Shown: positions 8,470-9,890, counted from the first letter of the stretch. The stretch is 64,000 bases of DNA from Escherichia coli (GCF_045037415.1 NZ_CP173438.1); one strand, 5' to 3'. Notes: generated by a model not told the origin, from the letters alone. Translations and numbers: made by a program.

Positions 8470-9194
8470 GTAAAAGCCGCTTAACGGTGTTTAGTTTCGT
8501 TCGCCGTTTTCTTCTGCGGTTAATGGTTGTCCTCGCCATTTTCTGGGGCGGGGGCATCGCGTTGTTTAGCGTTGCGCCTGTTCCTTTCTCAGCGGTAATG
8601 GTCGAGCGGCAAGTCAGCGCCTGGCTGCATGGCAATTTTCGTTACGTGGCACATTCTGACTGGGTCAGTATGGATCAAATCTCGCCGTGGATGGGACTGG
8701 CGGTGATTGCCGCAGAAGATCAGAAATTTCCTGAGCACTGGGGCTTTGATGTCGCTTCCATTGAGCAAGCCCTGGCGCACAACGAGCGCAATGAAAACCG
8801 TATTCGCGGTGCTTCAACGATTTCTCAGCAGACAGCCAAAAATCTCTTTTTATGGGATGGGCGTAGCTGGGTTCGAAAAGGGCTGGAAGCCGGATTAACG
8901 CTGGGGATAGAAACAGTCTGGAGCAAAAAGCGTATCCTGACGGTTTACCTGAATATCGCCGAATTTGGCGACGGTGTGTTTGGCGTCGAAGCTGCGGCAC
9001 AACGTTATTTCCACAAACCCGCGAGCAAACTTACCCGGTCGGAAGCTGCATTACTGGCAGCTGTATTACCTAATCCACTTCGTTTCAAAGTCTCCGCGCC
9101 ATCGGGCTATGTGCGTAGCCGTCAGGCGTGGATTTTACGGCAGATGTATCAGTTAGGCGGTGAGCCGTTTATGCAACAACACCAGCTTGATTAA
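8466..9194 (+). CDS. mtgA: Monofunctional peptidoglycan glycosyltransferase
   Basis: 242 aa ORF with N-terminal TM helix and GT51 transglycosylase motifs ([21 protein letters not shown]). Start overlaps the elbB stop (ATGA). Confidence 0.9.
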
Positions 9195-9823
9195 GCTTCG
9201 CGCGAAGTGAGGGCCAGCGTTTTGCTCTCACGAGGTTGCAGATCTTTCTGCAGGGCAATAGCCAGCGCCGGTTGGGCGATAAATCGTTTCCATAACCGCT
9301 CTTGCTTACGCAGACAACACCACTTCGACCAGGTCGCCAGTGGAATCAATGTGCTTTCACCAATGTTGTCGCAGACGACGGGGATAACCTCTGACTCACT
9401 GATGCGGTGACAGAGGATATTCTGCGGCTTCAGCGACATCGTCACGATACGGTTATCCTGCAAATAACGCTTCAGCTGTTTCAGTAACTGGCGCAGTTGT
9501 GCAATGTCTTCTTCGTAACGGCATTGTTCTGCAAATTCGGTCAGCGTAATGGAAGGCTTGCCGTCGAAATCGGCAATCACATCGTAGACATAACCGGTTC
9601 CGCAATCCGTCTCAACGGTACCGTGATAGCGCGGTATTCCACTCCAGTCTTTTAACCGGCGACCAAGATGCGCGTAGTACTTTAACTCACGGCGGATCTC
9701 TTTATCGCCACCATCGCCACGATGGTAGACAATCTTGATACAGCGTTGGGCATCTTCCGGATGCGCATAACATTTCCGATGTCTTCCGGTGCCCAGGGGA
9801 CTTTGTTCAGATAAGCGAATCAT
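9191..9823 (-). CDS. yrbL: PhoP-regulated protein YrbL
   Basis: 210 aa [27 protein letters not shown]... Shares a TTAA stop junction with convergent mtgA. Confidence 0.85.
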
Positions 9824-9873
9824 GCCATCTCCTGGAAATATTTTCTGACGATCTCCAGTATGGTCGATTAACT

Positions 9874-9890
9874 TAAACGAAATCTAAACA
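9874..9890 (-). promoter_or_regulatory. Candidate PhoP box upstream of yrbL
   Basis: Minus strand reads TGTTTA-GATTT-CGTTTA, a direct hexamer repeat with 5-nt spacer, about 50-67 nt upstream of the yrbL start codon. PhoP regulation of yrbL is from memory. Confidence 0.5.

Follow-up and report, generated by a model that had tools for sequence, protein, structure and literature searches.

The mtgA-yrbL locus of Escherichia coli: a conserved PhoP box at the yrbL promoter and a 4-bp convergent overlap of stop codons

Introduction

The convergent genes mtgA and yrbL of Escherichia coli raise two questions: is the repeat upstream of yrbL a PhoP box through which the gene is controlled, and how do the two transcripts end when the stop codons themselves overlap? 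We addressed both in a stretch of 64,000 nucleotides from E. coli (GCF_045037415.1 NZ_CP173438.1), referred to as the window, starting from an original prediction that had been made from the sequence.

PhoP control of yrbL is already established in the literature, and yrbL is a textbook PhoP-activated gene. In promoters of architecture I, the PhoP box is located approximately 12 nt (11 nt for yrbL) upstream of the -10 hexamer, and submotifs of the form (C/T/G)GTTTA are included (Zwir, 2012, PMC3335776). The Salmonella yrbL promoter is of this type, with a single direct box, TCGTTTAGGTTTTGTTTAA, the hexamer CATACT 11 nt downstream and a 32-nt leader (PMC3335776). It is footprinted by PhoP, and S1 mapping revealed a single transcription start that is active only in the wildtype at low Mg2+. 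Activation of this promoter is predicted to be of class II, and the reported distance from the -10 hexamer to +1 is oddly short at 2 nt (PMC3335776). In Shigella flexneri, phosphorylated PhoP shifts a yrbL promoter fragment in gels, and in a microarray yrbL was expressed in a phoPQ deletion mutant at 0.02 of the wildtype level, a 50-fold drop (PMC5775216). The yrbL promoter serves as a PhoP reporter in E. coli (PMC13215669; PMC2789325), expression of yrbL is among the weakest of the PhoP targets (PMC13215669; PMC4196223), and both BasR and PhoP are given as its regulators in a serum transcriptome paper.

Convergent overlaps of 4 bp on the tetramers CTAA, TTAA, CTAG or TTAG form an abundant class that has been explained by genome compaction, and the convergent overlaps in E. 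coli number 58 (Lillo and Krakauer, PMC2174442).

Materials and Methods

Orthologous loci were collected by a scan of one genome per species with a single protein query, which returned 11 usable loci, namely six Escherichia lineages, four Citrobacter and Salmonella arizonae. These were aligned over the promoter together with the window and K-12, and invariant columns were counted among the resulting 13 sequences. MG1655 coordinates were transferred to the window by colinear alignment, in which there were no indels. The published Rho termination regions were called with 800-nt comparison windows and their positions are therefore approximate (PMC7815308). Our own analysis provides the anatomy of the sequence, its conservation between genera and the lack of intrinsic terminators; PhoP and PmrA binding, Mg2+ induction, transcript 3' ends and Rho dependence are taken from published work on the K-12, Salmonella and Shigella orthologues.

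Results

The stop codons of mtgA and yrbL overlap on a TTAA tetramer

Many E. coli chromosomes match the 1575 bases at 8466-10040 with 100% identity, and a counterpart at least 95% identical is present in 5425 of the 5426 complete genomes; the region is the yrbL locus of the E. coli chromosome. On an identical genome, RefSeq lists the gene order elbB, mtgA (+), yrbL (-), npr, rapZ, ptsN. The order in K-12 MG1655 is the same as in the window, and the ends of mtgA and yrbL agree in both RefSeq annotations. The original prediction had named the two genes correctly, as judged from profile matches and the RefSeq annotation, and its claim that they converge with stops sharing a TTAA was likewise confirmed by sequence and annotation (Table 1). 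Positions 9189-9196 read GATTAAGC; the mtgA stop codon TAA occupies 9192-9194 and the yrbL stop codon TAA is the reverse complement of 9191-9193, giving an overlap of 4 bp between the coding sequences and of 2 nt between the stop codons. With TTAA being one of the four tetramers that define it (PMC2174442), the pair belongs to the class of 4-bp convergent overlaps. The junction is ordinary in kind and already documented.

Table 1. Features of the mtgA-yrbL locus, with positions counted from the first nucleotide of the window
Feature	Position	Strand	Basis
mtgA CDS, monofunctional peptidoglycan glycosyltransferase, 242 aa	8466-9194	+	ORF; TIGR02070 (E 8e-87); RefSeq
Expected stretch of Rho-stopped yrbL-sense read-through, antisense to mtgA	8576-9093 (approximate)	-	MG1655 3349699 (+) mapped to ~8576
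yrbL 3' UTR, antisense to the last ~32 mtgA codons	9094-9190	-	MG1655 Term-seq end mapped to 9094
TTAA tetramer with both stop codons, 4-bp convergent CDS overlap	9191-9194		sequence reading
yrbL CDS, PhoP regulatory network protein YrbL, 210 aa, kinase-like fold (predicted)	9191-9823	-	ORF; PF10707; NF007671; RefSeq
3' extension in the mtgA sense, opposite the 3' part of yrbL	9195-9467 (end approximate)	+	MG1655 3348808 (-) mapped to ~9467
yrbL Shine-Dalgarno AGGAG, 5 nt ahead of the ATG	9829-9833	-	sequence; conserved across species
-10 hexamer CATACT of the yrbL promoter	9857-9862	-	sequence; invariant in 13/13; same hexamer, 11 nt from the PhoP box, in Salmonella yrbL (S1-mapped)
Directly oriented PhoP box TGTTTA-GATTT-CGTTTA, overlaps the -35 region	9874-9890	-	motif; cross-genus conservation; published orthologous site
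PmrA/BasR box CTTAAG-AAAAC-CTTAAG	9897-9913	-	match with 0 mismatches; enclosed by two exact tandem copies of 11 bp
Long imperfect hairpin with UUUUU after it, predicted npr (rpoN operon) terminator	9928-9987	-	fold -19.8 kcal/mol, z -2.3

A comparison of junctions found the TTAA overlap in 8/8 loci of the genus Escherichia and in neither Citrobacter nor Salmonella. The gap between yrbL and mtgA is 7 nt in Citrobacter sp. NCU1, 104 nt in C. amalonaticus and 83 nt in S. arizonae; REP-like palindromes are present in the spacers of the latter two, and in two other Citrobacter strains a different gene sits between yrbL and mtgA. YrbL is 210 aa long in all loci compared, and in the nine loci where mtgA adjoins yrbL, mtgA can be aligned to within one residue of its end. 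The overlap thus reflects a spacer missing in Escherichia and not the extension of either protein. If we assume neutrality, it would represent genome compaction fixed in the Escherichia ancestor and not a designed regulatory device.

A conserved PhoP box replaces the -35 element of yrbL

The original prediction had noted a repeat resembling a PhoP box upstream of yrbL and had taken it as consistent with regulation of the gene by Mg2+ and PhoP. By itself, the motif is weakly significant in 64 kb: a search with KGTTTA-N5-KGTTTA at no more than 1 mismatch gave 2 matches against 0.79 expected, and the relaxed pattern BGTTTA-N5-BGTTTA gave 1 match against 0.09 expected, a count that 9 of 100 shuffles reach. 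We therefore relied on position, conservation and the literature. The position is that of architecture I. The box is in direct orientation, takes the place of a -35 element and is separated by 11 nt (9873-9863) from CATACT, with both elements on the yrbL strand. The repeat itself departs from (T/G)GTTTA-N5-(T/G)GTTTA at one base, the C that opens the second half-site; CGTTTA half-sites occur in proven PhoP boxes, namely those of Salmonella yrbL and slyB (PMC3335776). Further downstream, a 33-nt stretch with AGGAG (9833-9829) in it separates CATACT from the yrbL ATG (9823), placing the box 50 nt upstream of the start codon. A scan of 8400-10400 for consensus sigma-70 promoters returned no match, as would be expected of a promoter that depends on an activator and has a poor -35. 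The transcription start of E. coli yrbL would, by analogy, correspond to the one mapped in Salmonella.

Conservation over the 13 aligned sequences is concentrated in the regulatory elements. All 6 columns of the -10 hexamer, 14 of 17 columns of the PmrA box (see below) and 9 of 17 columns of the PhoP box are invariant, compared with 2 of 11 between the PhoP box and the -10, none of the 6 between the PmrA and PhoP boxes, and 2 of 14 in the segment upstream of the PmrA box. Within the PhoP box, conservation resides in the GTTTA cores; the spacer and the base that opens each half-site vary. In this alignment the three elements, held at fixed spacing across Escherichia, Citrobacter and Salmonella, form a clear phylogenetic footprint. 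In summary, the PhoP-box-like repeat has held up, by its sequence, its 11-nt distance to CATACT and its conservation in three genera, and the proposed regulation agrees with the literature on the orthologues (PMC3335776, PMC5775216, PMC13215669).

The box is not identical in all E. coli. K-12 has a perfect box, TGTTTA-GGTTT-TGTTTA, from which the window differs by a change of G to A in the spacer and of T to C at the base that opens the second half-site. One further change is found between the PmrA and PhoP boxes, and the PmrA box, the 11-nt spacer, the CATACT hexamer, the leader and the Shine-Dalgarno sequence are identical. Among 5425 complete E. coli genomes, the 86-bp promoter allele of the window is present in 1187 and that of K-12 in 3101, and a second half-site opening with C is also found in an Escherichia clade and in Citrobacter. 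From its sequence, we expect the window allele to retain PhoP binding. Its affinity could differ from that of the tested K-12 and Shigella sequences, because the second half-site opens with C and the spacer is different. In approximately one-fifth of complete E. coli genomes the box departs from that of K-12 at a contacted half-site position, and with such a box this reporter promoter, which is in wide use, could respond at a different PhoP threshold.

A PmrA/BasR box lies upstream of the PhoP box

Just upstream of the PhoP box, at a distance of 6 bp, is a perfect PmrA/BasR box that the original prediction had missed. The published consensus combines CTTAAG with xTTAAT across a 5-bp spacer (PMC3973317), and the site agrees with CTTAAG-N5-xTTAA(T/G) at every position. 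It is enclosed in an exact 11-bp tandem repeat, two copies of TTCTTAAGGTT at 9895-9916. The four half-sites of the PmrA and PhoP boxes start at 9913, 9902, 9890 and 9879, in steps of 11, 12 and 11 bp, which places them on one face of the helix. Three papers that cite earlier work (Zwir, 2005) report PhoP and PmrA sites as well as repression by PmrA at the E. coli and Salmonella yrbL promoters (PMC2681069, PMC4196223, PMC3335776), with the Salmonella PmrA box placed ~24 bp upstream of the PhoP box (PMC2681069). Lastly, the 3' half of the long hairpin further upstream is conserved across the species compared.

Taken together with the published work, these elements suggest how the promoter may operate. 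yrbL would be transcribed from a single sigma-70 promoter that has no usable -35. Phosphorylated PhoP would bind its box as a tandem dimer and recruit RNA polymerase in the class II manner of architecture I, turning yrbL on at low Mg2+ and in response to other PhoQ signals. PmrA/BasR, bound on the same helix face as PhoP, would dampen this activation, and the upstream hairpin would end the incoming npr transcript and insulate the yrbL promoter from it.

YrbL is predicted to have a kinase-like fold

The product of yrbL matches PF10707 (YrbL-PhoP_reg) over residues 2-185 with an E-value of 2.3e-67, and scores 398.9 bits against NF007671 (cut-off 227), making it a full-length member of a family that comprises 1036 representative clusters at E≤0.001. 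A sequence search for a solved structure of the YrbL family yielded weak kinase matches only. An AlphaFold (AF2) model built from 108 sequences is confident, with a pLDDT of 93.7. Foldseek gave 589 matches to this model in the PDB at E≤0.001, and the best 50 of the 589 are all kinase or pseudokinase domains. The TM-scores against PDB kinases are ~0.5, because YrbL corresponds to a minimal kinase domain. The elements of the kinase fold, namely the Gly-rich loop, the VAIK Lys, the alphaC Glu, the catalytic-loop Asn and the DFG Asp, can all be recognized, and the nucleotide-binding residues G11, G13, K30, E46, N135 and D152 are conserved in the family. The catalytic Asp of the HRD motif is an exception, with Ser130 aligning at the Asp of 'IVHLDLKPQN'. 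All Enterobacteriaceae orthologues have Ser or Thr at this position, and Asp is found there in only 39% of the family. YrbL is thus predicted to be a minimal kinase-like fold that lacks the catalytic Asp. YrbL substitutions E42G and V149L have been reported to arise under selection for resistance to an antimicrobial peptide (PMC11842939).

Transcripts of both genes extend into the partner gene in MG1655

Downstream of either stop, neither a consensus scan nor a scan for a hairpin followed by a T-tract detected an intrinsic terminator, i.e. a G+C-rich hairpin directly followed by a U-tract. Two structures were considered and rejected as terminators on account of having no U-tract: a hairpin at 9207-9231 (~-15 kcal/mol), just past the mtgA stop, and a small AGCTT/AAGCT inverted repeat around the TTAA. 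An Rfam search of 7000-11000 at permissive E-values returned ArcZ only, and nothing in the yrbL region. C mildly exceeds G (0.283 against 0.241) in the yrbL-sense extension but not in the mtgA-sense extension; as a sign of Rho loading, the C:G ratio is not informative alone.

Published data from MG1655 locate the ends inside the coding sequences. Term-seq detected a 3' end at 3349181/2 (+), which is 97 nt beyond the stop of yrbL and was classified as 'antisense mtgA' (Adams et al., 2021, PMC7815308). It coincides with the 3' foot of a stem-loop (~9131-9094) that has no U-tract and that, according to folds of both sequences, is kept in the window relative to K-12. Further along the same strand is a Rho termination region at 3349699 (+), with a Rho score of 14.6 and p 3e-54 (PMC7815308, supplementary file 2). 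Here, reads upstream and downstream numbered 280 and 21 without bicyclomycin, and 613 and 672 with bicyclomycin (PMC7815308). A weaker Rho termination region was reported on the opposite strand, antisense to yrbL, at 3348808 (-) (score 3.2, p 2e-5; PMC7815308). It maps 273 nt past the mtgA stop, and no hairpin with a U-tract is found at that place.

The original prediction had argued that the TTAA leaves no room for separate terminators, and indeed there is none after either stop and the MG1655 ends are inside the partner gene. It had also proposed that 3' ends well outside the overlap would count against it. The ends do lie at least 97 nt into the partner, but as a refutation this point was ill-posed, because an overlap of 4 bp forces every 3' end outside. 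Ends in the partner gene are what one expects when there is no room for terminators.

A likely sequence of events is that each RNA polymerase runs into the coding sequence of the partner gene and makes untranslated antisense RNA, at which Rho would stop it. The yrbL RNA would then probably be trimmed back to the stem-loop ~97 nt past its stop. Trimming of Rho-terminated RNA by exonucleases to the foot of a hairpin without U's has been discussed in general terms (PMC7815308). An overlap between the yrbL and mtgA transcripts has been published for MG1655 (PMC12288877, PMC7815308), and may by analogy be expected in the window.

Discussion

The PhoP site and the 4-base stop overlap are both confirmed as real; neither is new to the literature, and each is of an ordinary type. 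The finding mainly confirms annotation: the yrbL promoter is a standard PhoQ/PhoP reporter, and the gene pair is already listed among overlapping convergent units. The mechanism is standard as well, combining class II activation by PhoP, repression by PmrA and Rho-dependent convergent termination. We infer that binding, Mg2+ induction, 3' ends and Rho dependence carry over from the K-12, Salmonella and Shigella orthologues to the window allele, and we hold it to be very probable that the full account applies here, i.e. a PhoP-activated, PmrA-damped yrbL promoter together with Rho-stopped convergent transcripts across the TTAA.

This account could fail at either end of yrbL. At the promoter, TGTTTA-N5-CGTTTA might be a chance match and yrbL of this strain might not be controlled by PhoP. 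The motif is not rare, as seen from the 2 matches at up to 1 mismatch against 0.79 expected, and the box departs from the strict (T/G)GTTTA at one position. A C in this first position is present in proven boxes, however (PMC3335776), and orthologous boxes for which binding has been shown by experiment occupy the very position of this one. In three genera the flanks diverge while the GTTTA cores and their distance of 11 nt to the -10 have been kept, and 22% of complete E. coli genomes have this allele. We thus consider the likelihood of a chance match to be close to negligible. At the other end, both transcripts might stop at intrinsic terminators inside the partner coding sequence and not by the action of Rho. 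Hidden terminators have been reported for approximately one-fifth of the genes in E. coli convergent overlaps (PMC2174442), and ExcludonFinder gives overlapping TransTermHP terminators for 146 of the 165 convergent excludons (PMC12288877). In addition, the hairpin at 9207-9231 is just past the mtgA stop, and the mapped yrbL 3' end is at the base of a stem-loop. Yet neither hairpin has a U-tract after it, the consensus scan finds no terminator past either stop, and read-through increases with bicyclomycin on either strand (Rho scores 14.6 and 3.2). A Rho-terminated RNA that has been trimmed by exonucleases is moreover expected to end at the foot of a hairpin that has no U's after it (PMC7815308). 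Termination at intrinsic sites therefore appears very improbable to us, and Rho-dependent termination is the reading that we retain.

A further question is whether the overlapping transcripts of this Rho-terminated pair affect each other. In a functional excludon, PhoP-induced yrbL antisense RNA would lower MtgA synthesis and mtgA would do likewise to yrbL, by polymerase collision or by RNase III cleavage of the duplex, and low Mg2+ would consequently reduce the peptidoglycan glycosyltransferase MtgA. ExcludonFinder counts the pair among 165 convergent excludons that were detected in half or more of 58 MG1655 transcriptomes (PMC12288877), a listing that leaves room for a regulatory role. The yrbL RNA reaches at least 97 nt into antisense mtgA, with downstream counts rising from 21 to 672 in the presence of bicyclomycin, and the layout without a spacer is fixed across the genus Escherichia. 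Rho, on the other hand, removes most of the read-through (280 reads upstream, 21 downstream), yrbL is one of the PhoP targets with the weakest expression, and the coupling is not conserved, with spacers of 7-104 nt or an intervening gene in close relatives. Moreover, 4-bp convergent overlaps are common and explained by compaction. On balance we regard a functional excludon as unlikely. More speculative still, and in our estimate a long shot, is the idea that the terminator-less, PhoP-driven yrbL antisense RNA constitutes a switch that lowers MtgA at low Mg2+ or under antimicrobial-peptide stress, born of the spacer loss in Escherichia and tuned by the TGTTTA and CGTTTA alleles of the second half-site. 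The confinement of the overlap to the genus Escherichia does offer a natural comparison with the 7-104 nt spacers for any regulatory cost or benefit.

The account that we favour, with PhoP activation, PmrA damping and Rho-dependent ends, has close parallels in known systems. Like yrbL, pmrD is activated by PhoP and repressed by PmrA; its promoter belongs to the same class and has one PhoP box with a PmrA box a short distance upstream (PMC3335776, PMC2681069, PMC4196223). The distance between the boxes is ~38 bp in Salmonella pmrD and 23-24 bp in yrbL, and pmrD encodes a connector that activates PmrA, whereas no role in the circuit is known for YrbL. Compared with other 4-bp convergent overlaps and excludons of E. 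coli, mtgA/yrbL differs only in the control of one partner by PhoP. K-12 MG1655 has the genes, with yrbL as b3207, and the 4-bp TTAA overlap in common with the window; across the 1358 bp that cover yrbL and mtgA there are 16 differing positions and 0 indels. The yrbL promoter of Salmonella enterica shares the layout of the window, with a single direct box 11 nt from CATACT and PhoP-dependent transcription at low Mg2+, but has its C in the first half-site (CGTTTA-GGTTT-TGTTTA), where the window has it in the second, and a different leader.

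An early 3' end within yrbL

In published Term-seq data from MG1655, a strong ORF-internal 3' end lies at position 3348581, 129 nt into yrbL, with read counts of 5938 and 10894 under two conditions (PMC7815308). With a Rho score of 1.23 this end does not count as Rho-dependent; the score for an intrinsic terminator is 1.05 (PMC7815308). We find a hairpin in the yrbL transcript just 5' of this end. The early end implies that yrbL mRNA yields a stable 5' fragment of roughly 160 nt. The positions of these elements are collected in the table, together with other features of the window. 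Among the latter, the K-12 annotation concurs with the placement of the sRNA ArcZ, and the two ATGA overlaps represent the usual arrangement for translational coupling.

Positions of features in the window
Feature	Position	Strand	Basis
yrbL-internal 3' end	~9694	minus	MG1655 Term-seq end mapped to the window
yrbL-internal hairpin, CCATCG-TGG-CGATGG	~9725-9711	minus	
PmrA/PhoP hexamer array	9879-9913	minus	
ArcZ sRNA, between arcB and elbB	7591-7698	minus	Rfam RF00081, 120.8 bits
elbB-mtgA ATGA start/stop overlap	8466-8469	same-strand genes	read from sequence
rapZ-npr ATGA start/stop overlap	10305-10308	minus, same-strand genes	read from sequence

The yrbL promoter and protein

The PmrA and PhoP sites upstream of yrbL form an array of four hexamers, two half-sites for each regulator, which start at 9913, 9902, 9890 and 9879 (steps of 11, 12 and 11 bp), and all four are positioned on one face of the helix. 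The AAAAC spacer of the PmrA box is invariant in the aligned yrbL promoters of Escherichia, Citrobacter and Salmonella.

The predicted structure of YrbL is confidently that of a minimal protein-kinase-like fold, in which K30, E46, N135 and D152 are conserved. In the region of residues 126-137 (CDS 9191-9823, minus strand), Ser130 takes the place of the catalytic HRD Asp; this position is Ser or Thr across all Enterobacteriaceae orthologues, and Asp occurs in just 39% of the family. Retention of the nucleotide-site residues in a kinase-like fold that has Ser130 for the HRD Asp suggests that YrbL is either a pseudokinase that binds nucleotides or a transferase of an atypical kind.

yrbL and its surroundings in other genomes

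The 420-bp contig NZ_JUET01000135.1, from an assembly of Tannerella forsythia ATCC 43037, codes for part of a YrbL protein with 99% identity to that of E. coli; E. coli DNA has almost certainly contaminated this assembly. In the S. arizonae locus (L013), an inverted repeat with perfectly matching arms, CATACTAAATTTATG / CATAAATTTAGTATG, lies in the yrbL promoter and leader (~1461-1492), and the -10 hexamer falls within it; this repeat is not present in Escherichia.

Outside Escherichia and Salmonella the yrbL-mtgA neighbourhood is not fixed, because two Citrobacter strains have another gene beside yrbL. In these strains (L009, 2242-3162, minus strand; also L010), the gene directly 3' of yrbL, in the place of mtgA, encodes a protein of 306 aa whose N-terminus resembles a signal peptide, and beyond this gene lies a membrane-protein-like fragment. 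REP-like palindromes occur in the yrbL-mtgA spacer of both C. amalonaticus (L012, 2134-2237) and S. arizonae (L013, 2134-2216), for example GCCTGATGGCGCTCCGCTTATCAGGC and, on the opposite strand, GCCGGATGGCGGCGTAACCGCCTTATCCGACC, whereas in Escherichia, which lacks these palindromes, yrbL and mtgA overlap.
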